A stretch of 64,000 nt of DNA, taken from contig JAOAKI010000001.1 in assembly GCA_026413765.1 (NCBI GenBank), positions 6,325-70,324 on the forward strand, given 5' to 3'. Shown here piece by piece: positions 3,901 to 57,046 of the stretch (position 1 is the stretch's first letter; every line of letters begins with the position of its first letter). Below the pieces are notes generated by a model. It did not search any database. It worked only from the letters and a program-made list of their open reading frames with translations, and was not told the DNA's origin. Source of the DNA: Candidatus Micrarchaeota archaeon. Lineage in GTDB: Archaea; Micrarchaeota; Micrarchaeia; Anstonellales; Anstonellaceae. The position numbers and the translations under genes were made by a program.

Positions 3901-4125
3901 ATGGCAGAAAAAAGGCCTTTTGACATTTTGAATAGCGCACTGAACAACACAGTAGTTGTCGGTCTGAAGGGTGGCAAAGAGCTTAGAGGCACAATGGTCT
4001 CCTATGATGTGCATATGAACATCGTCCTTGAGAAGGCAGAGCACCTTGAGGATGGGCAAGTCAAGCGCGGGCTGGGCACAGTGCTGATACGCGGAGATTC
4101 TGTAGTCTATATTTCTCCTTCTTAG
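3901..4125 (+). CDS. Sm-like archaeal protein (SmAP/LSm)
   Basis: The Sm1 and Sm2 pattern is present: VVVGLKGGKELRGTMVSYDVHMNIVLEKAE...VLIRGDSVVYISP. AGGAGG lies about 10 nt upstream of ATG 3901. The track start at 3898 is TTG. Confidence 0.9.
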   Translation: MAEKRPFDILNSALNNTVVVGLKGGKELRGTMVSYDVHMNIVLEKAEHLEDGQVKRGLGTVLIRGDSVVYISPS

Positions 4126-4209
4126 GGCTTGTGGCGCAATGGTAGCGCGCCTGCATGGCATGCCTTCCCATAATGCAGGAGGCTGGGGGTTCGAATCCCC
4201 CCAAGTCCA
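4125..4209 (+). tRNA. tRNA-Ala (GGC) with 13-nt intron at 37/38
   Basis: GGGCTTG-TG-GCGC-AATGGTA-GCGC-G-CCTGC-ATGGCA, then TGCCTTCCCATAA, then T-GCAGG-AGGCT-GGGGG-TTCGAAT-CCCCC-CAAGTCC-A. The G3:U70 Ala identity pair is present. The first nucleotide is the last base of the Sm stop codon. Confidence 0.85.
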
Positions 4210-9774: not shown

Positions 9775-10253
9775 TTTCTCCCCTTCCTTTTTCTCTTCTT
9801 CTGCCCAACCTCTCCCCTTTCCTTGAACAAAAGAAATTCGTTTTTCATTGGGCAAATTTCGCTGATTGCGCGCTTGCCTTCATATTTTGCAAGCCTTTCC
9901 TTCTTGAGCTTTTCAATCACCAAATAAAGAAAGGTTGAGAAATCTCTCAAATCTATCTCGTACTCCTTTGTTACCTCTTCGCACCGCTGCAGCAATTTCA
10001 CCATGTCCACCAATATCTGCGGGTCAATCCTCTCTCCTGCTTTTGCTGCCTTTATCTTTTCCAAAAGAAGAAGCCTTGAAAGCTCAAGCTCTTTTGCGAT
10101 CTTCCTTAGCTTGCCTGTCTTTTTTTCGACCTTGATTTGGAAATCGGTCGAAAGCTGCACTACAGTCTCCCACGAAAGCTCTCCTAAGTTTTGGCTCAGC
10201 TGAACCGGCAGGCTGTATCGCTCCGAGAAGGGCAAACTTTCTTTTTCCACCAT
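9771..10253 (-). CDS. hypothetical helical protein with basic C-terminal tail (160 aa)
   Basis: ATG start and translational coupling to pgiA. It is predicted helical and charged, and ends in KKRKRKGRK. No family recognised. Confidence 0.5.
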   Translation of the reverse strand: MVEKESLPFSERYSLPVQLSQNLGELSWETVVQLSTDFQIKVEKKTGKLRKIAKELELSRLLLLEKIKAAKAGERIDPQILVDMVKLLQRCEEVTKEYEIDLRDFSTFLYLVIEKLKKERLAKYEGKRAISEICPMKNEFLLFKERGEVGQKKRKRKGRK

Positions 10254-10281
10254 CTTTCTCGCAAATCATCTCTCAGCTTCT

Positions 10282-10290
10282 CTTTAAAAG
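10282..10290 (+). promoter_or_regulatory. TATA-like box (CTTTAAAAG) upstream of the HerA-like gene
   Basis: It lies 21-29 nt upstream of ATG 10311, consistent with a leaderless or short-leader archaeal transcript. Confidence 0.3.
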
Positions 10291-10310
10291 GTTACGTGAA
10301 AAACAGCATT

Positions 10311-11825
10311 ATGCAAAAAGAGGTAGGTACTGTAATCTCCACGCCCGAAGGGCCAACCACCACCCATTTCGATTTTGTCATTTCAGACAATCGGGTGCGG
10401 AAAGGGCAGTTTGTCACTGTTGATGTCCCAACCGGAAAAGTCATAGGGTCAATCACCGAAATCACAAAGGCAAACAGGTATTTCGAGCGCGCAGAGTCGG
10501 TTGCAGAATACGAAAAGACCAGCCCGATTTCTGCTTCTTTTCCTGTTTCAGAATGGGAGTACAGTATTGCCTCTGTCAATGTGCATGGGCTGCTTTGCGA
10601 TGGGCAGACCGTCCGATCAACCTACCCTGTAAGCCCAGGCGACAGAGTGTTTGAGGCAGAGCCTGAGATGCTCAAAAAGTTCTTGCAGCTTGATGAATCC
10701 GGAATCTATATTGGCAATCTCTATCACCACGATTTGCAAATCAAGCTGTCGCTTTCGAAGCTTTTTCAAAAGCATCTTGCGATTCTTGCGATGTCAGGCA
10801 GCGGCAAGTCCTATCTTACCTGCGTGCTTATTGAGGAGCTGCTGGAAAGGCCGCCGCTTTCTGGAAGAATCGCGATTGTTGCAATTGACAACCATGGCGA
10901 ATATTCCGGCTTCAAGAATACGCAATACGGAAAGCAAACAACAGTAATAACTGGAAAGCAATTCAAGATACCTTACCGCAAAGTCTCCCCGCAAATGATT
11001 CGGGAATGGATTCCAGAAATGTCTGCAAGCCAATACCGCGAGCTTGTGCCGATCATGCAGCAGCTCAAAAGGGAGATGAAGCAGTCGGGAAGCCCCTTCG
11101 GAATCGAGGACCTCATCCAAAGGATAGAGCTGGACCTGAATGACAAAAAGAAAGAGAACATCAAAAGGCCCCTGCTTGGCTGGCTTACTGAGCTTGCCTT
11201 GCTTAAAGTGATTGGGAGTTCTGATAGCCACCAATTTGAGCAATTTGTAGAGCCTGGCCGCCTGCTTGTACTGGATCTGTCCGACATTGAGAACCAAAGA
11301 AAAAAGCAAATCATCGTTTCTTATGTCTGCAGGCGGCTCTTCCGCCTGCGCAAAAAAGAGAAAATCGCTCCGTTTTTGCTTGTTGTCGAAGAAGCGCACA
11401 ATTTCGCGCCCGAGAAGGTGGAAAAGCACCATGCGCTTGCAAGGGCGCCGATCATAACAATCGCAAGGGAAGGGAGAAAATTTGGCGCTTGCCTTTGCCT
11501 CATTTCTCAAAGGCCTGTCCACCTTGCAACCAGCGCACTTTCGCAATGCAACACCAATATAATCTTGCGCATGACCAACCCATTCGACATAAAGCATGTT
11601 GGGGAGTCTTGCGAAGGCATAGACAGCGACATGCTCAATTCGATCACCACCTTGAGAGTAGGCGAGGCATTGATAGTTGGGGAAGCAATCAGCTCTCCAA
11701 TTTTCGTGAAAATAAGAAGAAGGAAGTCCGAATTTGCCTCAAAAGGCAAGTCGCTTGAGCTGCTTTCAAAATCTTTCGAGGAGGCAAAAAAGAAAAAAGA
11801 GCAGGATGTAGAGGCGTTCTTGTAA
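10311..11825 (+). CDS. HerA-like (DUF87, FtsK/HerA superfamily) ATPase with N-terminal barrel domain
   Basis: The N-terminal region GTVISTPEGPTTTHFDFVISDNRVRKGQFVTVDV resembles a HAS barrel. Walker A is AILAMSGSGKSY (10791-10815), Walker B is LLVVEEAHNF, and ISQRP and TNIILRMTNP are also present. Confidence 0.8.
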   Translation: MQKEVGTVISTPEGPTTTHFDFVISDNRVRKGQFVTVDVPTGKVIGSITEITKANRYFERAESVAEYEKTSPISASFPVSEWEYSIASVNVHGLLCDGQTVRSTYPVSPGDRVFEAEPEMLKKFLQLDESGIYIGNLYHHDLQIKLSLSKLFQKHLAILAMSGSGKSYLTCVLIEELLERPPLSGRIAIVAIDNHGEYSGFKNTQYGKQTTVITGKQFKIPYRKVSPQMIREWIPEMSASQYRELVPIMQQLKREMKQSGSPFGIEDLIQRIELDLNDKKKENIKRPLLGWLTELALLKVIGSSDSHQFEQFVEPGRLLVLDLSDIENQRKKQIIVSYVCRRLFRLRKKEKIAPFLLVVEEAHNFAPEKVEKHHALARAPIITIAREGRKFGACLCLISQRPVHLATSALSQCNTNIILRMTNPFDIKHVGESCEGIDSDMLNSITTLRVGEALIVGEAISSPIFVKIRRRKSEFASKGKSLELLSKSFEEAKKKKEQDVEAFL

Positions 11826-11875
11826 AGAAGCCTGGCTGAACGCAATAATTTAAAGCTGAGCGCAGAAAGCCAGTT

Positions 11876-12787
11876 GTGGCAAGCTCCAATATTGTCAGAA
11901 GAGACCATCTCGGCAGGCTTGTAGTGCTCACTGCTTTGCGTAGCAGCAGGCCGCACGACTTTGGCCACCAAAAGCAGCCAAAGGTTCAGCAGCCAAAAGG
12001 CTGCTTTTTTTGCCCAGGAAACGAGCACCTCACGCCTCCAGAGATTTTCAGGATAGAGAAGGAAGGCAGGTGGGAAGTAAGGGTCTTTCCCAACAAGTTC
12101 CCTGCTTTCGACAGCCAAAGCAAATCCGCATATGGGCGGCACGAGGTCATTGTGGAGACACCAAATCACTACGCCACTCTCTCAGAGCTTTCAGTTGAAA
12201 ATCTTTTTGACTATCTTTCAGCGCTCTCTTTGAGGCTGGCTGACGCAAAAAAAGATCCAAAGCTCAAATACACTTCAATTTTCAAAAATGAAGGAAAAGA
12301 GGCAGGCTGCTCGCTGGAGCATTCGCACAGCCAGCTTGTCAGCATGCCATTCATCCCTCCTTTCATAAAAAAGCTTTCGAAGAAATCAAAAGCTTTCGCA
12401 AAGCTTGCCTCAAGCAGCAAGCTTTGCTGGGCAAGCAACCAGTATTTTGTCGCGCTCTGCCCAAAAGCACCGCGCTTCCACCTTGAGACCCTGATTTTGC
12501 CCAAGCAGCCAGAAGCATCGATGGACTTGATGGATGCTGAGAAGCTCTACAGCTTGGCAGAAATTCTCAAGACTGCTTTGGTGGCAATCGATAGGGCTGC
12601 AAACTTCCCTCCTTACAATATCATATTTCACAACGCACCTCACGGAATGGAAAGTTTCCCTTTCCACCTGCAAATCATTCCGCGGCTTTCGATTTGGGCT
12701 GGCTTTGAGCTTAGCACAGAAATTGTGATGCTTTCTGACTCGCCTGTGCAGATGGCAGAAAAGCTAAGGAAAGCCTCAATCGGCTAA
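11876..12787 (+). CDS. galactose-1-phosphate uridylyltransferase family (HIT superfamily) protein
   Basis: The Zn motif CFFCPGNEH and the active-site motif SLEHSHSQL (HxHxQ) are present. The start appears to be GTG at 11876. Confidence 0.8.
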   Translation: MASSNIVRRDHLGRLVVLTALRSSRPHDFGHQKQPKVQQPKGCFFCPGNEHLTPPEIFRIEKEGRWEVRVFPNKFPAFDSQSKSAYGRHEVIVETPNHYATLSELSVENLFDYLSALSLRLADAKKDPKLKYTSIFKNEGKEAGCSLEHSHSQLVSMPFIPPFIKKLSKKSKAFAKLASSSKLCWASNQYFVALCPKAPRFHLETLILPKQPEASMDLMDAEKLYSLAEILKTALVAIDRAANFPPYNIIFHNAPHGMESFPFHLQIIPRLSIWAGFELSTEIVMLSDSPVQMAEKLRKASIG

Positions 12788-13068
12788 TGCATATTTTTGT
12801 GCACTGTTACAGATATTTTTATAACCTTCTTAGCACAATCAGACAAGGCTTCTGTGGTGAGGTTATGCTGAAAGCAACTAGAAATGAGCTCAGCAAAGAC
12901 CATAAGCAACTGGCCCTAGCTGCAGTGCTGCATCGCGACGCAATTGCAAAATTCATCGAAAAAATAGCCCCAAAAGTCTCTCGGCTTCGCCCAAAATTCC
13001 TCCCTGTAGATAAGATAGTTTATTGCCGCCTTGGAAACAAGAAAGTCATCAAATTCATCTATTCTTAG
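12787..13068 (+). CDS. hypothetical ORF, possibly the N-terminal fragment of the downstream kinase-like gene
   Basis: Its ATG overlaps the GalT stop (TAATG). It ends in ...IVYCRLGNKKVIKFIYS, which resembles a kinase beta-3 (V-A-I-K) strand. A TAG stop follows, and the next ORF continues in another frame. Confidence 0.3.
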   Translation: MHIFVHCYRYFYNLLSTIRQGFCGEVMLKATRNELSKDHKQLALAAVLHRDAIAKFIEKIAPKVSRLRPKFLPVDKIVYCRLGNKKVIKFIYS

Positions 13069-13724
13069 GTGTTTTCTTGCAAGCCTTTGCTGTTTTTTTG
13101 GAAGGTTTTGAGCACCTCAGCTATCCTCTTGGGAAAGAGGACACTCCGCAGGAGTTCGAATCCAGAAAAGAGGCGTTTTTTCTTGTCAAGGTTGGAAGCG
13201 AGCTTGAGGCGCAATCTTTCGTTGCCGCCTGCGATGCTATCCAAAAGCATGCGTCTGTCCCTGTTGGCTATCTTTTCAAAGGAGGCGAATTTTTTTTGGT
13301 CTGCAAGCAAAGGAAATCCGCAAGAAAGCAGCAAACATTCATCACCCCAGAAGAAAAGCGCCAGCTTGCAGAGAAAATCATATTGAGGCTGGCCGAAATC
13401 CACTCCGAAGGCCTCTGCTGCGGAGGGATTTCTCCCGAAGCAATCGAATATGCTGAAAAAAAGGTGTTTTTGTCCGATCCTTCAAGGCTTTCTGCCTCGA
13501 CAGAGGCAAACGAAATGTTTTTCGAGGTCATTTCCACCCTCTGCCTGCTCAAAAAGCACAAGCTTGCATCCGAAAAAGATTTCGGCCGGCTTGCAAGCAT
13601 TTACCTTTCGTTCTCCCCAATCTGTCGCGACGCAGTGTATTCCTACTCAATTCAGAAAAGCAAAAAGGGCTCGCTGAAAGAGATCATCGTAAGATGCGCC
13701 GCAAAGTACTCCTCTTATTTTTAG
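13023..13724 (+). CDS. protein-kinase-like protein with degenerate catalytic loop (pseudokinase or decaying gene)
   Basis: LAEIHSEGLCCGGISPEAIEY...KVFLSDPS (13401-13445) aligns with the RIO/Bud32-type LHxxGxxHGDLxPxNI...DFG pattern. However, HGD is replaced by CGG and DFG by SDP. There is no ATG at the ORF start (TTG). Confidence 0.45.
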   Translation: MPPWKQESHQIHLFLGVFLQAFAVFLEGFEHLSYPLGKEDTPQEFESRKEAFFLVKVGSELEAQSFVAACDAIQKHASVPVGYLFKGGEFFLVCKQRKSARKQQTFITPEEKRQLAEKIILRLAEIHSEGLCCGGISPEAIEYAEKKVFLSDPSRLSASTEANEMFFEVISTLCLLKKHKLASEKDFGRLASIYLSFSPICRDAVYSYSIQKSKKGSLKEIIVRCAAKYSSYF

Positions 13725-16012
13725 GAAATCTGACTTGCGCGTGTTGGACTGTCTGCGCTTTTGTCTCTTTCAAGATTCCATACCGTCCCTTGCGCAGCCT
13801 GCCCAAGAGCCGACTCATGGGTGATTATGAACGTCTGCTGCACTATTTGGGGAATCTTTGTCTGTATTGCTTCGGAAAGGAGGGCAATTGCGTCACTGTC
13901 CAAATTGTGCGTAGGCTCATCAAGCACAAGCCAGCTGAGGTTAGGAGTAAGCACCGAGGCAAACGCAATCCTTAACGCAAGGCAGAGGCAGGCGCGCTCT
14001 CCCCCTGAAGCAATATTGTCCACCTCTCTCCACTCATCCTTGAACATAAGAAAGCGGTAGTCCTTTTCGTCAGCCTCTATCTTCACTTCTTTGTAGTCAG
14101 AATAGGGGTAAATTGCAGGCCATATCTCTGCCAAAGCTGCATTTATCTCCTCGATAAGGTCTGACCGCAGCTCGGTTTGGGCAGCAACCAAGCAATTCTT
14201 GTAAATTCTCATGCTTTCTGCTGCTTCTGCATATCTTTTTGCCTTTGACTGCCTCTGCCTTATTTGCGCCCACTCATTCCTGAGGCTCTCAATCATCTTC
14301 TCAAGAACTTGCTTTTTTTCGCTTTTGCCTTTCTCTTCCTGCTGCTTTCTTGCAAGCTCAAGGGACGCCTCACTCAGCCTTCTTTTTTTAAGCTCGTACT
14401 CTTCCTGGTCGAATTTGATGCTTTCAAGCTCAGCCTGGCTTTTTGCAAGCATCGTCTTGGCATCCTCAAGGTCGCCAAAAAGCTTGTCCAGCCTTTGTAT
14501 CTCCTCTGCTTCCTTTTGCGCCAGCAGAAGCTGCTGTTGCAGCTCAAACAGCCTCTCCTGCAGCAAATTGTATCCCAGCTGCTCCTTTTCTGCCTCTTGC
14601 TTGAGCCTTTCAATGTCCTCCTGCGGAAGCTCTTGCTCCTTTTCAGCTGCCTCTGCCTCAGAAAGAAGGCGCATTGCTTCAGCGATTGCGTTTTCTGCTT
14701 TTGCAGCTTCCTTTTGCGCCTCTTTTGCCTGCAGGCAGATTTTTTCCGCATCTTCCTCCTGCCTTTTCTTTTCCGCTTCTTTTTCTTTCCTCAACTGCAC
14801 TGCTCTTTGAGTATTCAAGAAGCTGTCGCACACAGGGCATTTTGCGTCTGCCTTCTCCAATGCCTTGATCGCAATCCCAAGCTGCTCAATCTTTGCGCGC
14901 ATAGCGGCGCATTGGCTGCCCAAAGCCTCTGCCTCTTCTTTCTTTCGCGAAAGCAGCTCTTCAGCCTCCTGAAGAGACCGGTTTTGCAGGATGCTGGCAG
15001 CCTTCGCCTTGAGCATCGCTGCCTTTTCTTTCCTTTCTTTGCGCAGCTTTTCTGCGCTCTGGGCAACCGCGATTCTTGACGAAAGCAGAGAGATTGCCTT
15101 CTGCTTCATTTCAAGCTCCTGCCTTTTCTGGACCATTTCTTTCTTGAAAGCCTCTGCTTTCTTTTCAGCAGCATAAAGAGCCTGCTTTTCTGGCTTTGCC
15201 TTGCCTTCAGCCTCTTTCTTCAGCCTCTCCAGCAATCCCTCTAGTTTCTTGCATTCTGCAGTCTGGGCTGCCCATCTTGTTTTTGCATCCTCAAGCAGCT
15301 TGACCTCAGCCTCAATCTCTTGCTTGGCCTTCAATGCGCCTTCGATTGCCCTGCGCAATGACTCCAGCTCTTGACCCAGCGACTGCAGCTCTTTTTCATA
15401 CTCGCCGATTTGCTTTTCAATTGCAGACAGCCTCTCTTGGTCTTGGGGGAGGCTGAGCGCCTCTGCCTGCTGCTGCAGCCTGGTTGCAGTAGTTTGCGCC
15501 TCTTTTGCCGCATCATCAAATTGCCCAAGGCCAAGCAACCAATCTATCTCGGTCTTTCTCTGCTTGGGGTTGAGCGAAAGCAGAAAGTCCATCCGGTTTT
15601 GCTCAGAGTATATCGCCCTGCTGAAAAGCTCATAATCTGTGCCCAATATTTCCTCTATCAGCGCTGTGGTCTGCCTTGTGCCTTTCTGCAGAAGCTTGCC
15701 ATCGCACCTCAGCTCTGCATCTGATAAATTCTTCCCTATTTTGCGGACCACTTGGTATTTTTTGCCTTCTTTTTCAAATTCAAGCTCCACCTTTGCGTAA
15801 GGGGCCATGCTGCCAATCCTGACCAAGTCCTCGGTTGTAATGTCCCTTCTTGCCAGACGCGGAAATGTGCCGTATAGCGCAAAGCATATCGCATCCAAGA
15901 CAGATGACTTTCCTGCACCCATCCTGCCAACTAGTATGTTCGTCCCTTTCGAAAAAGCAAATTCGCTGTGCTCGTGCGACTTGAAATTCTCAAGAGCCAA
16001 TTTTGTTATCAT
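13721..16012 (-). CDS. rad50: Rad50-type SMC-like ATPase with zinc hook
   Basis: Walker A is LVGRMGAGKSSVLDAICFALYG. A long coiled coil carries a central CPVC hook (14828-14839). The signature motif is SGGERACLCLALRIA and Walker B/D-loop is LVLDEPTHNLD. Confidence 0.85.
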   Translation of the reverse strand: MITKLALENFKSHEHSEFAFSKGTNILVGRMGAGKSSVLDAICFALYGTFPRLARRDITTEDLVRIGSMAPYAKVELEFEKEGKKYQVVRKIGKNLSDAELRCDGKLLQKGTRQTTALIEEILGTDYELFSRAIYSEQNRMDFLLSLNPKQRKTEIDWLLGLGQFDDAAKEAQTTATRLQQQAEALSLPQDQERLSAIEKQIGEYEKELQSLGQELESLRRAIEGALKAKQEIEAEVKLLEDAKTRWAAQTAECKKLEGLLERLKKEAEGKAKPEKQALYAAEKKAEAFKKEMVQKRQELEMKQKAISLLSSRIAVAQSAEKLRKERKEKAAMLKAKAASILQNRSLQEAEELLSRKKEEAEALGSQCAAMRAKIEQLGIAIKALEKADAKCPVCDSFLNTQRAVQLRKEKEAEKKRQEEDAEKICLQAKEAQKEAAKAENAIAEAMRLLSEAEAAEKEQELPQEDIERLKQEAEKEQLGYNLLQERLFELQQQLLLAQKEAEEIQRLDKLFGDLEDAKTMLAKSQAELESIKFDQEEYELKKRRLSEASLELARKQQEEKGKSEKKQVLEKMIESLRNEWAQIRQRQSKAKRYAEAAESMRIYKNCLVAAQTELRSDLIEEINAALAEIWPAIYPYSDYKEVKIEADEKDYRFLMFKDEWREVDNIASGGERACLCLALRIAFASVLTPNLSWLVLDEPTHNLDSDAIALLSEAIQTKIPQIVQQTFIITHESALGQAAQGTVWNLERDKSADSPTRASQIS

Positions 16013-20961: not shown

Positions 20962-21786
20962 ATGTCTGCGACAGCTTATGATTTTGAAGCCTGCAAAGAG
21001 GTTTTGCAGAAGGGCTCAAAGACGTTTTTTCTTTCCTCCAAACTATTGCCTGCTGCAAAAAAGAAAGCATTTTGGGCAGTCTACGCTTTCTGCAGGAAAA
21101 GCGACGACATCATCGACGAGGGCAACATCCCTGCAAGAAAGCGGCTTGAAATGCTTCGAAAATGGGAAAAAGAGCTTCTTGGCGCTTACGCCGGCAAGCC
21201 AAGCAAGCATCCTGTAATCCGTGCGTTCGTGTCGGTAGCAAAAGAGTTCAGTATTCCAAAAAGTTATCCGCTTACTCTGATCAGGGGCGTTTCTTCCGAT
21301 CTTTACCGCCAAAGGTTTTCCACTTTCCAGCAGTTGCGCGCATATTGCTTCTCAGTCGCTTCAATCGTTGGGCTCATGCTTTTGCGGGTCATGGGGATAA
21401 ATTCAGCCAAAGCGCGCAAGAAAGCGGTTTATCTTGGGATTGCGATGCAATTGACAAATATCATCAGGGATGTTGCTGAAGATTTCAGCGCAGGAAGGGT
21501 CTATCTGCCTGCATCTGACCTCAGAAGGTTTGGGCTTTCTTATTCTGACTTGGGCCCAAAAATGCAAAAAGGCAAAAAGAGAGCATTCATCAAGCTGATC
21601 GAGTTCGAATGCAAGCGTGCAAGGAAATATTATCGCCTTTCGCTTTCTGGCATCAGGCTTCTTCCAAAAGAGCTCCAAATAGCAATCACCACCGCTTCTC
21701 TGCTTTATTCCAGCATCCTTGACAAAATCGAGCGCTCTGGATTTGATGTGTTCAAGCAACAAAGGCTGTCGTCCTCTTTTACTTGA
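20962..21786 (+). CDS. crtB: phytoene synthase (squalene/phytoene synthase family)
   Basis: AVYAFCRKSDDIIDE is the first Asp-rich motif. NIIRDVAEDFSAGRVYLP is the second. Confidence 0.85.
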   Translation: MSATAYDFEACKEVLQKGSKTFFLSSKLLPAAKKKAFWAVYAFCRKSDDIIDEGNIPARKRLEMLRKWEKELLGAYAGKPSKHPVIRAFVSVAKEFSIPKSYPLTLIRGVSSDLYRQRFSTFQQLRAYCFSVASIVGLMLLRVMGINSAKARKKAVYLGIAMQLTNIIRDVAEDFSAGRVYLPASDLRRFGLSYSDLGPKMQKGKKRAFIKLIEFECKRARKYYRLSLSGIRLLPKELQIAITTASLLYSSILDKIERSGFDVFKQQRLSSSFT

Positions 21787-22045: not shown

Positions 22046-22359
22046 TATTGTATATTCCACTTTCCCCACGCTCGCTTTGTAACCTCCCATACTGTCAGAT
22101 AAAAAAACGGGGCAACGACAAAAAACAGCAGCTCTTCAATTGGCTGGTTGATTATCACAATGCCAGTCATGTACTGAAGGCCAAATTCCCAATGCCCTCT
22201 TTCAGCAGCTATTATGTCCCAAGAGACAAAAACCAAAAAAACAGGCAAAACAGCATAGGCAAATCTTTTCAAACTTATCTGCACGCCTCCCAGCCTGCAC
22301 AAAGCAGCCGAAAAAATCGCTATCGCCGCAAGATAAGCCAAATAATAAAACCAGCTCAT
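22045..22359 (-). CDS. crtYc: lycopene cyclase domain subunit (heterodimeric type)
   Basis: A 104-aa membrane protein with INQPIEELLFFVVAPFF, the lycopene cyclase domain motif. Its start overlaps the crtI stop by 4 nt. Confidence 0.75.
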   Translation of the reverse strand: MSWFYYLAYLAAIAIFSAALCRLGGVQISLKRFAYAVLPVFLVFVSWDIIAAERGHWEFGLQYMTGIVIINQPIEELLFFVVAPFFYLTVWEVTKRAWGKWNIQ

Positions 22360-23846
22360 CTGTTTCCACCCGCAAAAAATTCTTCCTTGAACCTTTTTTC
22401 AATAAGCTGTGCAGAAAGAAGGACGATTGGTATTCCGCTTCCTGGATGGGTGCTTGCCCCCACAAAATAAAGCCTTTTGATTTTCCTGTCTTTGTTTGGT
22501 GGCCTGAATCCGGCCGACTGCAGAAGTGTCGGCGATAGACCAAATGTTGCACCATCCTCCAAGTTGAACATCTCTTTCCAATTTTGCGGCGTGATCCTCT
22601 CTTCCATCACTATCCTTTTTTCCAGCTCCTTTATGCCTATCCTCTCAAGCCTTTCGAAGACCTTCCTGCGGAGCCTACCTGCCTCCTCATCCCAATTTAT
22701 TTTCGATGAAAGGTTTGGCACCGGCACAAGTATGTAAAGTATGCTGTGGCCTTCTGGGGCAAGCGAGCTGTCATGCACGCAGGGGTTGGCAATATAGATT
22801 CCTGGCTCTTGTGGCATTGTTTTTTTCTCAAATATCTCTTCGAAAGTTTTTAGGCTGTCTTTCGGCAAGAGGAAGGTGTGGTGCGGCAGATCAACCGCAC
22901 CCTTTATACCCAAATAAATCATGAATGCGGAGCACGAGTTCTTAAGCAGTCGTAGTTTTGAGTTGGGCATGTGCGGCCTGTCCTTTTCTTCAATCAGGCA
23001 AAGATAGGTGTAGATTAAGTCTGCGTTTGAGATAACGGCATCAGCGCGAACTATTTCGCCTCCCTCAAGCATGACGCCAACTGCCTGCATATTCTCTATC
23101 ATGATTTTTTTGACCGGATTGCCAAATTTTATTTTCACTCCCATCTGATAGCAAACCTGCCGGATTGCTTCCGCTATTTTGTAAAGCCCTCCTTTTGGGT
23201 ACCAAACCCCTTCAGTGAATTCCACATAAGGTATCAGGCCGTATACGGCAGGCAGAGCGGTCGGGGCTGCGCCAATATAGACTGATTGGATTGAGAATGC
23301 AAGCCGAATTCTCGGGTCAGCAAAATAGTCGCCAGTTTTGGAATAAACATCCCTCAAGGCACCAGCTGAAAGGAGCGCGGCAATCGCCTTTGGATTTATC
23401 ATGTCAAGTGGCGAATCAAAATTTTTTTCTATGAATTCCTCAAGCGCAATTTGGTAATATTTTTTGTAGTCCGCCAGATATCTTCCGTAAGCGTCAGCGT
23501 CTTTTTGCGAGATATTTGCCATCTCTTCAATCATCTTCTTTACATCCGAATATGGCGAAAATTGGCCATCACCCTCGAAATATATCCTGTAGATCGGGTG
23601 CAGCTGCTCCAAGTGGAGCCAATCTTCAAGCCTCATGCCCATGTCATCAAAAAACTTGCGCAGGACCCATGGCATCAGCAGAAGCGTCGGCCCAATGTCT
23701 ACGCGGAAATTTTCTTTTTGCATGCACGCAAGCCTGCCGCCTGCATTGCCGTTCTTCTCATATATTTCCACTTCGAACCCAAGCTTTGCCAGCCTGCATG
23801 CAGCAGCCATGCCTCCAACGCCAGCTCCAATTATGACAACTTTCAT
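22356..23846 (-). CDS. crtI: phytoene desaturase
   Basis: MKVVIIGAGVGGMAAACRLAKLGFEVEIYEKNGNAGGR is the FAD-binding fold. Length (496 aa) and the C-terminal YFVGASTHPGSGIP motif match CrtI. Confidence 0.85.
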   Translation of the reverse strand: MKVVIIGAGVGGMAAACRLAKLGFEVEIYEKNGNAGGRLACMQKENFRVDIGPTLLLMPWVLRKFFDDMGMRLEDWLHLEQLHPIYRIYFEGDGQFSPYSDVKKMIEEMANISQKDADAYGRYLADYKKYYQIALEEFIEKNFDSPLDMINPKAIAALLSAGALRDVYSKTGDYFADPRIRLAFSIQSVYIGAAPTALPAVYGLIPYVEFTEGVWYPKGGLYKIAEAIRQVCYQMGVKIKFGNPVKKIMIENMQAVGVMLEGGEIVRADAVISNADLIYTYLCLIEEKDRPHMPNSKLRLLKNSCSAFMIYLGIKGAVDLPHHTFLLPKDSLKTFEEIFEKKTMPQEPGIYIANPCVHDSSLAPEGHSILYILVPVPNLSSKINWDEEAGRLRRKVFERLERIGIKELEKRIVMEERITPQNWKEMFNLEDGATFGLSPTLLQSAGFRPPNKDRKIKRLYFVGASTHPGSGIPIVLLSAQLIEKRFKEEFFAGGNR

Positions 23847-25684: not shown

Positions 25685-26531
25685 CGTCTCAGATTTCAAT
25701 TCCCCTCACAATATCACTTGGTGTCCAGGATGCGGAGATTTTGGCATTCTGGTTGCGCTCAAGGGCGCATTTGCCAAGCTTGGCCTTTCTCCGCATAATG
25801 TGGTCGTAGTGTCCGGCATTGGGTGCGGAGGGAAAATCCCGCACTTCATCCGCACCTATGGATTTGAAGGCATACATGGCAGGGCACTGCCTGCAGCGAC
25901 AGGGATACACCTTGCAAACCACGAGCTGACAGTGGTTGCGATTGGAGGCGACGGGGATGGATGCGGCATCGGGCTTGGCCATTTCATGCATGCAATGAGG
26001 CGCAATCTGGATATAACGTATATTATCCAGGACAATGAGATCTATGGGCTTACAGTTGGGCAAGCTTCCCCAACCACAAAAAAAGGAGTGATCACAAAAA
26101 GCACGCCGCACGGGACGCCTGAAGACCCGATAAATCCTCCACTTGTTGCTCTTGCCGCTGGCGCCACATTTGTCGCAAGAGGATTTTCAGGCGATATCCC
26201 GCACCTTACCGACCTTATTGCGAAAGGAATCGCGCATCGCGGGGTTGCGTTCATTGATGTTTTCCAGCCTTGCGTGACGTGGCGGAAAGATCTTCCCTAT
26301 GAGCTTTATCAAAAGAAAATCTACAAGCTGGAGGAGGTAGGGCACGATCCATCCGATTGGCAAGCCGCAGTCAAGCGCGCCATTGAGACTGAGCGGTGGC
26401 CGATTGGAATTTTTTACCAGGTGCAAAAGCCAATCTACACCGATCAAATCCCGTTCATCAAAGACAAGCCGCTTGTAAAGCACGACATTTCAAACATAGA
26501 CATTTCCAAATACCTTGAAGAATTCATGTAG
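25677..26531 (+). CDS. korB: 2-oxoacid:ferredoxin oxidoreductase beta subunit (TPP-binding)
   Basis: WCPGCGDFG, SGIGCGG and GGDGDGCGIGLGHF motifs are present. The gene overlaps the korA stop. Confidence 0.9.
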   Translation: MASVSDFNSPHNITWCPGCGDFGILVALKGAFAKLGLSPHNVVVVSGIGCGGKIPHFIRTYGFEGIHGRALPAATGIHLANHELTVVAIGGDGDGCGIGLGHFMHAMRRNLDITYIIQDNEIYGLTVGQASPTTKKGVITKSTPHGTPEDPINPPLVALAAGATFVARGFSGDIPHLTDLIAKGIAHRGVAFIDVFQPCVTWRKDLPYELYQKKIYKLEEVGHDPSDWQAAVKRAIETERWPIGIFYQVQKPIYTDQIPFIKDKPLVKHDISNIDISKYLEEFM

Positions 26532-27606
26532 CCTTCATCGCAGAAACTACTCTTTCTTTTGCTATCTCAAGTGCAGCTTCCCTCAAGTCGACTTTTCCTT
26601 TTTCAAGAACAAGCCGCGTGTTTTTTACTATTTTTTCCTTCACAGCAGAAAACATTTCCTGCTCGCTTCCACCAATATATTCTATGTAAGATGAAATCAC
26701 TCCGCCTGCGTTTGCTACAAAATCCGGGATTATGAGTATGCCTTTTTTTGCAAGCTGCAACTCAATTTCATGCTTCATTGGTATGTTTGCAGCTTCAACA
26801 ATTACCTTTGCTTTTACTGACCCTGCATTATTTTCATTTATGACATTTGGCCTTGCGCCTGGGATTAGGACATCGCATTTAAGCTCAAACAGCTGCGAAG
26901 CGGAAAGCACAGTTGCGCCAGGATAGTAAATCACGCTTCCTTTTTGCTTTTTTGTTTCGATCAGCTTGTCATAGTTGAGCCCTGATTCAAAGTAGGCAGT
27001 CCCTTTGGAGTCTGACACTGCGATTATTTTTGCTCCTTTTTGCGACAGGAACTTTGCAGTAAACGTCCCAACATTTCCAAACCCTTCAATTGCAACCGTT
27101 GAGCCTTCTATTGGTATCTTTTTGTGCTCAAGAGCGACTTCGGTGGCAAGCGCAACGCCAAACCCAGTTGAGCCAAGCTCGTGCGGCAGGCCACCCATGC
27201 TTTTCGGCTTGCCAGTGGCAGCCTTTGGTGTCCCAATCGTCTTTGCTATAATTTCCATCTCATGCTCGCCCATGTTCATGTCAGGTCCTGCGATATAGCA
27301 TGAAGGGACAAGTGGGGCGATCTTTGAGGCAAATGCCTCTACAAGCTTGTCTTTGTTTGGCGCATTTCCTGCTGCCTTGATTCCTGATTTTGCCCCTCCA
27401 AAAGGTATTCCTGCAAGCGCATTTTTCCATGTCATTGCTCTTGCAAGCCCAAAAACCTCCTCTACTGTTATGTCCGGCACCATCCGCACTCCGCCTTTGC
27501 CAGGCCCAAGTGCGGTGTTGTCCACCACCACAATTCCTTGCATCTTTGTCTTAGGGTCGTATACTTCTAGTATCATTTCTGGGCCAAAATCATCCTCAAA
27601 TGGCAT
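26524..27606 (-). CDS. Glu/Leu/Phe/Val dehydrogenase family protein
   Basis: GPGKGGVRMVP...MTWKNALAGIPFGGAKSGI is the catalytic-Lys region. IEGFGNVGTFTAKFL is the Rossmann GxGxxG motif. Confidence 0.85.
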   Translation of the reverse strand: MPFEDDFGPEMILEVYDPKTKMQGIVVVDNTALGPGKGGVRMVPDITVEEVFGLARAMTWKNALAGIPFGGAKSGIKAAGNAPNKDKLVEAFASKIAPLVPSCYIAGPDMNMGEHEMEIIAKTIGTPKAATGKPKSMGGLPHELGSTGFGVALATEVALEHKKIPIEGSTVAIEGFGNVGTFTAKFLSQKGAKIIAVSDSKGTAYFESGLNYDKLIETKKQKGSVIYYPGATVLSASQLFELKCDVLIPGARPNVINENNAGSVKAKVIVEAANIPMKHEIELQLAKKGILIIPDFVANAGGVISSYIEYIGGSEQEMFSAVKEKIVKNTRLVLEKGKVDLREAALEIAKERVVSAMKAT

Positions 27607-27621: not shown

Positions 27622-28644
27622 TTACGCTCCTTTGCATCGCTGTGTCTGTGGGTCGCAGAAAGTATTTGGCGGGCAGTCTTCATGCCTGCTGCATGTTACC
27701 TTCACGCAACGATATGCGTTCACCGAATACGGGTCAAGCTCGCATCTTTCGTTGTATGCGCAATGAGCAGAAGAGGTGCAATAACCTATCTTAAGAATGC
27801 ATTTGTGCTCTTTTTCATCGCATCTTTGGTAAAATGTGCATTCGGCATCCGAAGAGCAATAGCCTGGCCTTGAAATGCACCTTCTGCTATTCACATCGCA
27901 AATCTGCCAAGCCTGGCAGTCTGCATTCGAGCCGCACAAGCCACGCTTTGCTTCGCACCTGTGCGTGGTCGGGTTGCAAAGCTGCCAAGAAGTGCACTGG
28001 CTGTCAAGTTCGCAATAGCCAACACCTGCTACGCAGCGGTGCAGCCCAGGGTCGCAAACCTGCCATTCTGCGCAGTCCAAGTCATTGTCGCAAAAGCCTT
28101 CTTTTGGAACGCATTTGTTGGTCGTCTGGTTGCATATCTGCCATTCCTTGCATTCTGCCGAGTTGGAGCATCTGCCAGGCAGCGAGACGCATTTCTTTGC
28201 CTGCATGTCGCAGGTCTGGTAGGCTTCGCAATCGTATGGAGTTTCACAAAGTCCGGGCTTGGGGACACAGATGTGCTTGATTGGGCTGCATATTTGGGTC
28301 TGCTGGTTGCAATATTCGTCCCTGTCGCAGAACCCTGCCTTTGGCCTGCAAGTGTTGTTGCCTGTCACATCGCAAAGCTGCCACGATTCGCAGTCGCTGT
28401 CCGAGCGACATTTGCCTTTTATGTAGGCGCACTTGTGCGTTGTGATGTCGCAAGTCTTCAGCGTGTCATTGCAATCACTGTCCGAATTGCAATAGCCTGG
28501 CTTTAAAACGCAAGTTTTCTTTGCAGTATCGCAATACTGCCATGCCTTACAGTTTTTATCGCTCGAGCATGATGAAGAGCCAGCGCACCCATAAAGCACC
28601 AACAACGCAACCAATGCAAAAAAAGCCAAAATTCTGCCTTTCAA
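27622..28644 (-). CDS. cysteine-rich tandem-repeat lipoprotein (340 aa)
   Basis: A signal peptide with a lipobox-like LLVLYGC is followed by about 12 repeats of 26-27 aa. Each repeat has 4 Cys, for example SDSDCESWQLCDVTGNNTCRPKAGFC. The start appears to be TTG. Confidence 0.75.
   Translation of the reverse strand: MKGRILAFFALVALLVLYGCAGSSSCSSDKNCKAWQYCDTAKKTCVLKPGYCNSDSDCNDTLKTCDITTHKCAYIKGKCRSDSDCESWQLCDVTGNNTCRPKAGFCDRDEYCNQQTQICSPIKHICVPKPGLCETPYDCEAYQTCDMQAKKCVSLPGRCSNSAECKEWQICNQTTNKCVPKEGFCDNDLDCAEWQVCDPGLHRCVAGVGYCELDSQCTSWQLCNPTTHRCEAKRGLCGSNADCQAWQICDVNSRRCISRPGYCSSDAECTFYQRCDEKEHKCILKIGYCTSSAHCAYNERCELDPYSVNAYRCVKVTCSRHEDCPPNTFCDPQTQRCKGA
27625..28566 (-). repeat. about 78-81-nt coding tandem repeats (12 diverged copies)
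   Basis: Cys positions in the translated product recur every 26-27 residues, with spacing C-x5-C-x5-C-x6/7-C-x6. The copies are diverged at the DNA level. Confidence 0.7.
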
Positions 28645-28775
28645 TCCATCACCAGTTGATTTTCAGCTAATAAATTATTAAAAATCATTCAGTAGCCGCA
28701 TATTTTGCGCCTTCGTAAAGCTCTGCATTTGCGGAAGGAAAGTCGTTTAAAACCTTTGACTTAACAAACTAGCCT

Positions 28776-29024
28776 ATGAAGCAGGATGCGATTCCAAAAG
28801 GGGCGCTTAGGCAAAATGCGATAAAGGAGCTTGTATTTTTTTTGAAGAGCGGCTCTTTGCACAATGCTTATGAGATAATGATTTCGTTTGGCATAACAAA
28901 AAAAGAGATAATGGAGGAGAATCGCAGGACTGGCGGCCATCTTGCCAAAGAAGCCCTTGAGGAATTCTATCTCTACTGCAGCAGGCAGGCACAAAAGAAG
29001 TTCGAGAAACATCTGAAAGAATGA
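28776..29024 (+). CDS. hypothetical protein (82 aa)
   Basis: ATG ORF with plausible helical composition in an otherwise empty interval. No family recognised. Confidence 0.35.
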   Translation: MKQDAIPKGALRQNAIKELVFFLKSGSLHNAYEIMISFGITKKEIMEENRRTGGHLAKEALEEFYLYCSRQAQKKFEKHLKE

Positions 29025-29096
29025 TGTTTTCTTCAGCCCACAATGAAGCCTCAAAATAACGAAGGTTTTTAATATTTCAAATCAGAACTTAAAGCT

Positions 29097-29900
29097 ATGT
29101 TGCGCCTCCTTGCAATCTTGCTGGTCCTTTTCAGCCAGCTGAATTCAGTAAGGGTAATTTATCCTGCCAGCGCAGAGATTTCAAACGGAAGCCAAATATC
29201 AGTTGAAAGCGTTGGGCCTGGCCAGACTTTTGCAGTCGTTGTGGACCCGAAAGTTTCGACAGGCGGAAAGCACGGAATTGGTGGAGCATACGATTTGCTG
29301 GTCCCGCTGAAGCTGCCTTCTGGATGGTCGGGCTCCCCATCAAAGCTTTATGCAAATCCGCTGCAGGCAGAAATTACCGTCGCAAAAGATGCGGCAGACG
29401 GGGAATATGATGTGCTTTTTGCACTGTGGGATGAAGCAGGCGAGCAAGGCTTAGGCGACAATCTGACATTTTCCGCAAAAGTCGTCGTTTCCTCCGATGT
29501 TATTGGCATGAAAGTGGAGCCTTCCTTTCTTTCGGTTGGCGCAGGCCAGCCAGCAAGATATACAATCACAGTTTTAAACAAAGGAATCGCAAATGACATT
29601 TTTCTGATAAGCTCGACAGGAGTTTCCAGCTGGGCTTTCCAGAGGTCGGTTTATATTCCCGCAGGCACAGCCAAGTCAATCACATATGAAGTGGTGGGCA
29701 ATGAAGAAGAGCAATACAACGTGCGCTTTTCTGCAAAATCGGCATCAAGCGACAGAATTTCCGCATCTTCTGATGTCGGATTGCAGGTCCAGACTAATTT
29801 GGTTTCTGACTGGAAAGCAGTCAATCGCGGAGTTCTTCTCTTCCCGATAGTCCAAGCGCCAGCATTCTTCTTTGCAGGGCTTCTCTCGCTTTTGTTTTGA
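29097..29900 (+). CDS. secreted, C-terminally membrane-anchored surface protein with beta-rich (CARDB/NEW3-like) repeats
   Basis: The N-terminal signal is MLRLLAILLVLFSQL. Two beta-sandwich-like segments follow (GQTFAVVVDP..., GQPARYTITVLNKG...AGTAKSITYEV). The C-terminal TM is LLFPIVQAPAFFFAGLLSLLF. Confidence 0.55.
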   Translation: MLRLLAILLVLFSQLNSVRVIYPASAEISNGSQISVESVGPGQTFAVVVDPKVSTGGKHGIGGAYDLLVPLKLPSGWSGSPSKLYANPLQAEITVAKDAADGEYDVLFALWDEAGEQGLGDNLTFSAKVVVSSDVIGMKVEPSFLSVGAGQPARYTITVLNKGIANDIFLISSTGVSSWAFQRSVYIPAGTAKSITYEVVGNEEEQYNVRFSAKSASSDRISASSDVGLQVQTNLVSDWKAVNRGVLLFPIVQAPAFFFAGLLSLLF

Positions 29901-53104: not shown

Positions 53105-53755
53105 TCACCGTCTCTTTTGCAATTTCTCCTCTATTGTCTGCTCGTCTTGCAGGCCAGAAAGAACAAGCTGCTCATCAATGACAATCGCCGGCACTTCCTT
53201 TATCTTGTATCTTTCAATAATCACGTCCAAAAGCTCCACATCAGCATCAATTGGGAAAGCAAAAACCCGCAGTTCTGGGTGCTTTTTTCTTACTTCATCC
53301 AGAACTTTCCCTTGCGCGCTGCACATCGGGCAATTCTCCTTTATTTTATAGAAAAACAAAACAATCCTATAAGGGCTTTCCCCGCAATACTTTTTTGCCA
53401 AAAGCAAATTCAGATACAATCCTGCATTAGAAATATAGTATTGATTGCGTATTTGTTCATAGTCCTTCTGAACCACATTACTTTTTTCGTATTGCATTAT
53501 TTTCTCAGCAAGAAGGTATGCCCTGGCAGCTTTGCTTTGTGTCGTGGATGAAAAATAGCCGCAAAGCTCGGATTTGTTTTCCACCACTTGCGAATAAAGA
53601 AATAGTAGCCTCTCCATTTCAGATTGGTAAACAAGCTCATCAACATTTTTACGCAACTCATCTGCCCTCATCTGATCCAATTGCGTGATGAAGAAAAACC
53701 CAAGAAATGTCAGCGCTATTGTCAGTAAGGCTGCTTTAATGTACGGACTTACCAC
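53105..53755 (-). CDS. membrane-anchored thioredoxin-fold protein with CPMC motif
   Basis: An N-terminal TM (IKAALLTIALTFLGFFFI) and a helical region are followed by FFYKIKENCPMCSAQGKVLDEV...VPAIVID, a CxxC thioredoxin/glutaredoxin-like fold. GTG start. Confidence 0.55.
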   Translation of the reverse strand: MVSPYIKAALLTIALTFLGFFFITQLDQMRADELRKNVDELVYQSEMERLLFLYSQVVENKSELCGYFSSTTQSKAARAYLLAEKIMQYEKSNVVQKDYEQIRNQYYISNAGLYLNLLLAKKYCGESPYRIVLFFYKIKENCPMCSAQGKVLDEVRKKHPELRVFAFPIDADVELLDVIIERYKIKEVPAIVIDEQLVLSGLQDEQTIEEKLQKRR

Positions 53756-56482: not shown

Positions 56483-56911
56483 TTATTCTATCCTGCAAAG
56501 AGCCATCTTTTCAATTTCAAGCTCTGCCTCATAGTAGTTGCCGATTTTTTTGCCCCATAAAGGAATGCGGCAAGCTTCCGCCCTTTCCAGGCGCAATCTT
56601 TTTTTGACGGCCCTGCTTAGCTTCCTTTCTGACGCAATCAAAAAATCCGATGCGCTTTTTGCTCCCACCTTTTTTATGGCCGAGGAAAAGTTTGTCTCCT
56701 TTGCAAGGAAAAGCAGCGCCTCGTTTTGAATCTTGTCTGATATGTTCCTCTTTTCCTTGAATGCTTTCCTTGCAAGCTCAAAGGCAGCCACGAGTTCCAT
56801 TTTAGTTTTTGCTGCTTGGGGCGAAATTATCAGCAGTCCGCCTATTTTCTTGCTAGCCTCCACCAGCTCTTCAACCGAAGAAAAAGAGGAAGAGCACCGC
56901 AGGACTATCAT
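56483..56911 (-). CDS. cgi121: Cgi121-like KEOPS subunit
   Basis: At 142 aa, its KRNISDKIQNEALLFLAKETNFSSAIKKVG resembles the Cgi121 block (..S.E.LL.LSG.RQI..AI...G). Confidence 0.6.
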   Translation of the reverse strand: MIVLRCSSSFSSVEELVEASKKIGGLLIISPQAAKTKMELVAAFELARKAFKEKRNISDKIQNEALLFLAKETNFSSAIKKVGAKSASDFLIASERKLSRAVKKRLRLERAEACRIPLWGKKIGNYYEAELEIEKMALCRIE

Positions 56912-57046
56912 GTCCTCAATAAAGCTGCTCTAAATTTTTATTGCCTTCAGTTCATTGCTGGTTTTTTCATACACACTACCCATTCAGAGAAGACTATTGG
57001 AGTAGGCTTAAATAAACTATTATGTTATTTTTATACTGATGATGGT

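Follow-up and report, generated by a model that had tools for sequence, protein, structure and literature searches.

The dependence of DPANN archaea on host cells is believed to be mediated by their surfaces, yet hardly any of the proteins in their envelopes are understood. The closest described counterpart of the protein considered here comes from bacteria: the cysteine repeat TIGR04201 (Myxo_Cys_RPT in NCBIfam), originally defined for Myxococcales proteins, on Myxococcus TraA, as a unit of about 20 residues with three invariant cysteines plus flanking cysteines (Pathak et al. 2012, PMC3325183). The TraA repeats have been proposed to act as a rigid stalk (PMC3325183, PMC6372800), and when repeats were deleted some proved dispensable and others essential (Cao et al. 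2019, PMC6372800). On the archaeal side, DPANN are predicted to have many lipobox proteins and are reported to encode AliA (arCOG02177) (Hong et al. 2025, PMC12462473). Here we describe a gene for a cysteine-rich repeat protein in a 64,000-nucleotide stretch of DNA from a Candidatus Micrarchaeota archaeon (assembly GCA_026413765.1, contig JAOAKI010000001.1, positions 6,325 to 70,324; "the window" below). We read its product as a lipid-anchored extracellular rod with about 24 disulfides, a "stalk without a head" that would serve as a structural spacer or in contact, and we give this reading a probability of roughly 0.6.

Twelve four-cysteine units

An initial annotation of the window had proposed a cysteine-rich open reading frame of about 15 percent Cys. 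It is a real gene, located at 27622..28644 on the minus strand (stop codon included, with a second TAA directly after) and encoding 340 residues, which starts with TTG, ends with the double stop TAATAA, and contains 49 cysteines (14.4%). Past Cys20 the gaps between successive cysteines cycle through 5, 5, 6 and 6, yielding twelve units that cover residues 26-340 (27625..28569, minus strand), as had been described from the spacing C-x5-C-x5-C-x6/7-C-x6, although the units are 26-29 residues long. On the same strand, units 1-4 lie at 28492-28569, 28411-28491, 28330-28410 and 28249-28329, units 5-8 at 28171-28248, 28093-28170, 28015-28092 and 27937-28014, and units 9-12 at 27859-27936, 27781-27858, 27694-27780 and 27625-27693. 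Their consensus is C-[SD]-x-D-x-[DE]-C-x-x-[WY]-Q-x-C-[DN]-x4-[KR]-C-V-x-K-P-G-[YF]. In 20,000 composition-preserving shuffles the number of inter-cysteine gaps of 5 or 6 averaged 6.0 and never exceeded 17, compared with 45 of 48 in the protein, and the number of cysteines with another cysteine at +26 averaged 6.6 with a maximum of 16, compared with 28. The regular spacing is not due to chance.

A single-protein scan of species-representative genomes recovered nine orthologue loci with 42-78% identity, all in Micrarchaeota metagenome-assembled genomes (MAGs), and further relatives were found on metagenome contigs. The genomes of the two closest orthologues are labelled Ca. Anstonellaceae, so the earlier suggestion of an episymbiotic archaeon stands as far as affiliation with DPANN is concerned. 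Nine 12-unit orthologues are collinear with the window protein and conserve all 48 repeat cysteines, and more distant orthologues have ten units. The protein at locus L011 (5846-6886) has 48 cysteines rather than 49, with a Trp in place of one repeat cysteine, in "GSLWMV". Coverage of this MAG contig is very low, so the change is more likely to be an assembly error than biology. From one orthologue to the next, particular units retain features of their own, such as NDTLK in place of xxWQx in unit 2 and a DPYSxNAYRC insertion in unit 11. Three histidines (His70, His124 and His280) are invariant, the conserved His standing two residues ahead of the fourth cysteine of its unit. Three N-x-T sequons, N59 (28468-28470), N96 (28357-28359) and N172 (28129-28131), are conserved in seven to eight of the nine 12-unit orthologues and are possible N-glycosylation sites on the rod.

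The proportion of nonsynonymous differences between orthologues (pN, 0.14-0.31) is well below the saturated synonymous proportion (pS, about 0.7), and the ratio of nonsynonymous to synonymous substitution rates (dN/dS) is about 0.2 or lower (0.20 for the closest unsaturated pair). The gene is under purifying selection. Since the nearest orthologue is 78% identical, a conservation similar to that of the neighbouring Elp3 and enolase, the protein is not fast-evolving. Within the window protein, seven 26-residue units share a mean pairwise identity of 39%, or 28% when cysteines are left out; Tandem Repeats Finder detected no tandem array in the array DNA, and the best self-BLAST match reached 76% over 74 nucleotides. 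Divergence of the units at the DNA level had led to the proposal that the array is old and under selection, and these comparisons, together with the collinear orthologues and their retained cysteines, bear it out.

Relation to catalogued repeat families

It had also been claimed that the unit matches no named cysteine-rich domain. Pfam PF19232 (DUF5885) speaks against this, as the protein matches it with 68.6 bits (E = 7.6e-19, summed over six stretches) against a gathering score of 33.2. The best stretch covers profile positions 34-114, and all orthologues and relatives match only positions ~13-117 of the 265, with no match to positions 118-265; DUF5885 and the cysteine-rich family thus share the cysteine-repeat segment only. 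We considered whether DUF5885, with its 265 positions, could be a 10-unit version of the protein and rejected this on the profile coordinates. Public precomputed annotation already places PF19232 on several members of the family, and no paper on DUF5885 turned up in the literature.

The link to TIGR04201 is seen less in the scores of single proteins than in the unit itself. The window protein scores 18.0 bits against the TIGR04201 model, below the curated cutoff of 25, whereas the Micrarchaeota paralogue P0007 scores 25.3 bits and more distant matches 35-47 bits. In spacing (C-x5-C-x5-C-x6-C) and in the xDxDC motif, these distant matches agree exactly with the window unit. When the profiles of the two unit types were aligned, they matched over all 24 columns with an hhalign score of 33.2. 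Both unit alignments had been picked on their cysteine pattern, and we therefore permuted the non-Cys columns as a control, keeping the cysteines fixed; the permuted profiles scored 11.2 +/- 3.2 (maximum 22.4), and 0 of 200 reached 33.2. By this profile comparison the likeness extends past the cysteine residues. Given the common spacing and motif and a score of 33.2 against 11.2 in the permutations, the unit is, on sequence grounds, a Trp-Gln subtype of the TIGR04201 repeat class, and the earlier exclusion of the Myxococcus repeat on account of its spacing was wrong. The top bacterial-type matches of the window protein were also tried as TIGR04201 members and rejected, as none of those tested reaches the cutoff, P0007 from Micrarchaeota being the exception.

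Other named families fit less well. The TraA receptor model NF033759 gives 20.2 bits, over the cysteine-rich region only (model positions 275-478), against a threshold of 750, and a Pfam search of the 340 residues revealed no domain besides the array. No Pfam EGF family matched at E <= 10, and EGF arrays gave Foldseek TM-scores of at most 0.17. The six-cysteine cystine knot, the criterion for knottins and squash inhibitors, is absent, as each unit has four cysteines. The Dickkopf pattern, earlier held not to fit, is a mixed case: the window protein has no match to Dickkopf_N (PF04706; gathering score 25) at E <= 10, but the L013 orthologue passes that threshold with 30.5 bits and 8 of 100 relatives match. 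"CysRReps", from a 2026 preprint that mentions Micrarchaeota, were set aside because their motif is a different one (Cx6-9Cx5-7Cx8-11Cx7-8CC). A confident match to a described repeat family having been found, the novelty claimed for the protein is largely lost, and it represents no new class of domain. The class is already catalogued yet functionally uncharacterised; what is new is its archaeal, stalk-only, Trp-Gln form, through which a family of archaeal proteins is connected with a repeat that had been reported as specific to myxobacteria.

Start site, predicted signal peptide and putative lipobox

Upstream of the gene, a region on the minus strand at 28648..28693 contains an A/T-rich TATA-like box (28668-28684), a CTGAAA motif and a Shine-Dalgarno-like GGTGAT (28648-28653) that stands 4 nucleotides ahead of the TTG. 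These are plausibly the promoter and the ribosome-binding site. A 36-nucleotide block of this region is 94% identical in two orthologue loci (L005 and L006), and the layout of a TTTTTAAT-type box, CTGAAA, GGTG[AG]T and TTG is common to all nine 12-unit orthologue loci. This conservation supports the start codon and, through it, the signal peptide.

The predicted signal peptide (residues 1-19; 28588..28644, minus strand) consists of an n-region MKGR, a hydrophobic h-region of 13 residues (ILAFFALVALLVL) and lipobox positions -3 to -1 occupied by L-Y-G. It is followed by Cys20 (28585..28587, minus strand), the predicted lipid-attachment site, which is invariant in all orthologues. Across 12 orthologues, L17 (-3) is nearly invariant and G19 (-1) and C20 (+1) are fully so, while the -2 position varies (Y here; H, S, P or A elsewhere). 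The lipobox-like LYGC of the first description is present as stated, and the predicted signal peptide with its lipobox Cys is conserved in every orthologue. AlphaFold gives a predicted local distance difference test score (pLDDT) below 50 over the signal peptide, as expected for such a segment. Cysteine totals provide a further indication. In orthologues they follow 4n+1 (49 = 12x4+1, 41 = 10x4+1), and Cys20 is accordingly the sole cysteine outside the four-Cys register, which fits its lipidation and the pairing of all others. Lipid modification of Cys20 is predicted on these grounds, and objections to it are weighed below.

Predicted structure and architecture of relatives

An AlphaFold2 model built from 13 input sequences has a mean pLDDT of 85.4, with values of ~85-93 across most of the array and lower ones in the last units, and a predicted TM-score (pTM) of 0.42. 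In the model, the xDxDC segment of each unit forms a three-residue helical turn, after which comes a beta-hairpin with the third and fourth cysteines as cross-strand neighbours. Searched against the PDB with Foldseek, the model found no global match (TM-score on the query <=0.17). Local matches were to disulfide-rich modules of eukaryotes: to Draxin (probability 0.92 over 65 columns) and Dkk4 CRD1 (probability 0.51, 31% identity over 62 columns), and also to EGF, LDLR-A and TNFR arrays and the cysteine-rich region of the Entamoeba Gal/GalNAc lectin. Sequence and profile searches of the PDB, with the protein and with the family profile, found no related solved structure, and a Foldseek search of BFVD returned only uncharacterised giant-virus cysteine-repeat membrane proteins with low TM-scores.

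Single units aligned with the squash knottins EETI-II and MCoTI-II over 25-29 columns, with root-mean-square deviations of 1.1-5.4 A, 32-45% identity and E-values of 1.5-3; one unit superimposed on EETI-II over 26 columns at 1.3 A (35% identity, E = 1.5). EETI-II contains a C-x5-C-x5-C-x5-C sub-framework like that of the cysteine-rich unit, with bonds C9-C21 and C15-C27. Because of this local match we infer that each unit would form C1-C3 and C2-C4 disulfides.

Relatives were sought exhaustively among 1.84 billion representatives; 274 proteins matched at E <= 0.001 and 21 at E <= 1e-30. Among the matches listed that start with Met, 95 of 142 have an N-terminus resembling a signal peptidase II substrate (SPII-like). 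In 48 of these 95 the anchor is followed by the repeats and then by a Cys-poor region of at least 120 residues; 11 show the reverse order, 24 have repeats only (many being fragments) and 12 are arranged otherwise. Partner domains of the relatives are extracellular modules of various kinds and include RCC1, VWA, PPC, peptidases C25, M6 and M12B, TSP3, CBM, dockerin and a T9SS tail. Since the unit stands between a lipid anchor and globular domains of diverse kinds, it would appear to be a stalk or spacer module in these proteins, in agreement with the role proposed for the TraA repeats, and the window protein a "stalk without a head". A different arrangement is seen in a Micrarchaeota paralogue type (P0007, P0171 and P0021), which carries a Cys-poor insert of about 250 residues inside the rod. 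In P0007 this insert is modelled at a pLDDT of ~30, and a PDB sequence search with it found nothing significant. In the MAG that encodes P0007 (locus L017), a different one from that of the window, a gene for a 1579-residue protein lacking any Pfam match (9916-14655, plus strand) directly follows P0007, and type IV pilus/archaellum-type ATPase genes (T2SSE/T2SSF) lie nearby. The neighbourhood may be a surface-structure gene cluster.

A proposed anchored rod and its alternatives

According to the reading that we favour, the protein would be exported in a Sec-dependent manner, and its signal peptide would be removed and Cys20 lipidated through an archaeal lipoprotein pathway of the AliA/AliB type. 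With two bonds inside each unit, probably C1-C3 and C2-C4, the remaining 48 cysteines would give 24 disulfides, and the units could stack via the conserved Trp/Tyr of xxWQx and the Gly-Tyr/Phe linker. The stacked array would be a stiff, heat- and protease-resistant rod projecting from the cell membrane. Its role would probably be structural, as a spacer or coat in the envelope, or else lie in contact with a partner cell. That the protein is a disulfide-rich rod on the cell surface had been suggested from the beginning, and given the structure model and the architecture of the relatives we keep this as the most reasonable prediction.

Several points weigh against this reading. The disulfide pairing and the overall rod shape are inferred, and the pTM is 0.42. 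Having no head domain, the protein can be called a stalk by reference to the module's role elsewhere rather than to its own, and the stalk role of TIGR04201 repeats is hypothetical in TraA itself. The residue at lipobox position -2 is atypical, Y lying outside the bacterial consensus [LVI][ASTVI][GAS]C, and the 64-kb window contains no lipoprotein-biogenesis gene and none of DsbB/VKOR type, its two polytopic proteins being VIT1 and TctA. The conserved His ahead of the fourth cysteine and the acidic xDxDC could bind ions instead. Finally, no RNA run was found to hold the window sequence, the only run holding it being a hot-spring metagenome. In a hot-spring metatranscriptome the whole region of the closest orthologue had no coverage, which makes that data set uninformative on transcription. 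A 210-nucleotide contig from a lake metatranscriptome is 100% identical to the coding region of the L009 orthologue, with the glutamate dehydrogenase gene and flanks at that locus uncovered. This weakly suggests that a member of the family is transcribed, although carry-over of DNA is possible.

The alternative that survives best, and one that we regard as a genuine if lesser possibility, is an adhesin, in which the rod surface, with its Trp-Gln positions, acidic patches and N-x-T sequons that may carry glycans, would attach to a substrate or to the cell of a partner or host. The DNA comes from a micrarchaeon, and cell-cell contact, which such an adhesin would mediate, is typical of DPANN archaea; the protein is predicted to be surface-exposed, evolves at an ordinary rate and carries the three conserved sequons. 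Related repeats occur in TraA, a receptor for cell-cell recognition, and weak Foldseek matches lead to cysteine-rich regions of adhesion proteins and lectins, the Entamoeba lectin among them. In TraA, however, recognition is a matter of the PA14/variable domain rather than of the repeats; no binding domain can be recognised in the window protein, and the structural matches are at the low TM-scores given above. Nor does the protein show the fast diversifying evolution that is often seen in host-contact proteins, its conservation being similar to that of Elp3 and enolase.

A more far-reaching proposal, which we consider unlikely as a whole, extends the anchored rod to a functional envelope organelle of Micrarchaeota: a head-less filament of 24 disulfides that spaces membrane and S-layer or bridges to a host, and whose stalk module was exchanged between bacteria, in the form of myxobacteria-like lipoproteins, and DPANN by inter-domain gene transfer.

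It is also distinctly unlikely, in our view, that the protein is exported and not lipidated, its Sec signal being cut by signal peptidase I or serving as an uncleaved anchor, with the Cys of G-C as the first repeat-associated cysteine. The atypical -2 residue and the lack of biogenesis genes within the window would be accommodated in this way, and archaeal lipidation has been experimentally shown in Haloferax only. Nevertheless, all orthologues and the majority of the bacterial relatives have L-x-G-C directly behind the h-region, and Cys20, lying outside the four-Cys register, would be left unpaired unless lipidated.

Metal binding or buffering, either metallothionein-like or as a Ca2+-stabilised module resembling LDLR-A or TSP3, we judge to be quite improbable. 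The high cysteine content, the three invariant histidines, the conserved xDxDC motif and the weak Foldseek matches to LDLR-A arrays are compatible with it, but metallothioneins are cytoplasmic and this protein is predicted to be exported. In addition, it contains no CxC, CC or CxxC clusters, its cysteine count past the lipobox is always even, a confident model of the regular hairpin fold was obtained with no metal, and no Pfam metal-binding family was matched.

Least credible of all is a tandem array of knottin-like inhibitors or toxins, such as a multi-headed protease inhibitor: the unit matches to EETI-II and MCoTI-II and weak Pfam toxin-family matches in some relatives hint at it, but the former have non-significant E-values, four cysteines per unit make a cystine knot impossible, an inhibitory loop has no counterpart, and the lipid anchor and stalk-like architecture of relatives point to a structural module. 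Thus the adhesin, non-lipidated, metal-binding and inhibitor-array explanations all appear weaker than the anchored rod.

Being conserved across Micrarchaeota, small enough for expression and confidently predicted, the family is a practical candidate for experiments. Archaeal lipoprotein anchoring beyond haloarchaea and extracellular disulfide formation in DPANN could both be tested on it, and the rigid-stalk idea put forward for TIGR04201-type repeats could be tested on a protein in which no head domain complicates the result.

Gene neighbourhood and other features of the window

Fifteen nucleotides downstream of the cysteine-rich gene, on the same strand, is a glutamate dehydrogenase (GDH) gene (26524..27606, minus strand; Pfam ELFV_dehydrog) with its own AGGAGG. 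The two genes are probably co-transcribed, and their order, with the cysteine-rich gene directly upstream of GDH, is kept in eight loci (L004-L011). There is no obvious functional reason for pairing a surface-protein gene with this metabolic enzyme. On the other side lies a divergently transcribed gene (29097..29900, plus strand). Its 267-residue product has a signal-like segment at the N-terminus and a transmembrane segment at the C-terminus, and lacks cysteine. It is kept in this position in L004-L007 with 65-70% identity, has no Pfam or PDB sequence match, and may be a second envelope protein that shares the promoter region. POR and Elp3 are also syntenic in three loci, in two of them together with enolase.

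The intergenic region 28645-29096 contains an open reading frame for 82 residues (28776-29024, plus strand) with no Pfam match and no tblastn match in related loci. About 340 nucleotides around it are lacking in the closest orthologue loci, where the divergent genes are only ~108 nucleotides apart. The frame may represent a small gene confined to this lineage or what is left of an insertion.

At 53105-53755 on the minus strand lies a gene for a 216-residue thioredoxin-fold protein with one N-terminal transmembrane segment and a C-terminal domain containing CPMC (Pfam Thioredoxin_3), plausibly an exported thiol-disulfide oxidoreductase. It had been proposed as a possible provider of extracytoplasmic disulfide chemistry. 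The gene does exist with the features described, but it is 25 kb away, and a link to the repeat protein would be hypothetical.

Elsewhere in the window, neither a further lipobox protein nor a cysteine-rich paralogue was found. A squalene/phytoene synthase gene (20962-21786, plus strand) is near one for an FAD-dependent amine-oxidase-type, phytoene-desaturase-like protein (22356-23846, minus strand), a pair of isoprenoid/carotenoid-type genes in a reduced DPANN genome. A gene for a HerA/FtsK/TrwB-like ATPase of 779 residues (56816-59155, plus strand) falls in the GC minimum of the window (56-58 kb; 0.414 vs ~0.47 elsewhere), and this region may be a mobile or secretion-related island. A predicted tRNA-Gly(GCC) at 4125-4209 (plus strand), with its anticodon at position 38, is 85 nucleotides long, longer than a standard tRNA, which may reflect an intron or a mis-set boundary.

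Comparison with known systems

The resemblance to animal proteins is a local one. Dkk4 CRD1 (PDB 5o57) and Draxin (PDB 5z5k) have a CxxDxxCxxxxxC motif in common with the window protein, but CRD1 of Dkk is a single 10-Cys domain of animal signalling proteins and not a four-Cys tandem unit, and the TM-scores are low. With the AliA/AliB substrates of Haloferax volcanii (PMC12462473) the protein shares an N-terminal signal peptide with a lipobox Cys, both predicted in its case; those substrates are mostly solute-binding proteins unrelated to the mature cysteine-rich protein, and the -2 residue in the window is atypical.

Closer are the uncharacterised metagenomic lipoproteins P0003, P0006 and P0009, which, from their composition and partner domains, are presumably bacterial. 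They share the WQ-type unit, including the xxWQx and PG-x motifs, at 35-43% identity over 150-280 residues (E down to 1.6e-74), and their lipobox Cys directly precedes the repeats. Their units are 24-25 residues long with gaps of 5, 5, 4/5 and 6, as opposed to 26-29 residues in the window protein, and after the repeats comes either a Cys-poor domain of at least 300 residues or one of RCC1, VWA or peptidase type.

TIGR04201 and the window unit have identical cysteine spacing, an xDxDC start, D or N after the third cysteine and a T/x-rich hairpin turn, and in both cases the repeats are arranged in tandem in exported, envelope-anchored proteins and have been proposed to form disulfide-bonded stalks. 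The window protein has neither a PA14 nor any other head domain, unlike TraA. Within the unit, position 12 is Trp or Tyr (xxWQx) in the window and Gly (PAGxV) in TIGR04201, and the linker is a fixed six residues ending in P-G-aromatic in the former, whereas it is variable and acidic in the latter. Host and anchor differ as well: an archaeon with a predicted N-terminal lipobox in the present case, and a myxobacterium with MYXO-CTERM in the case of TIGR04201.

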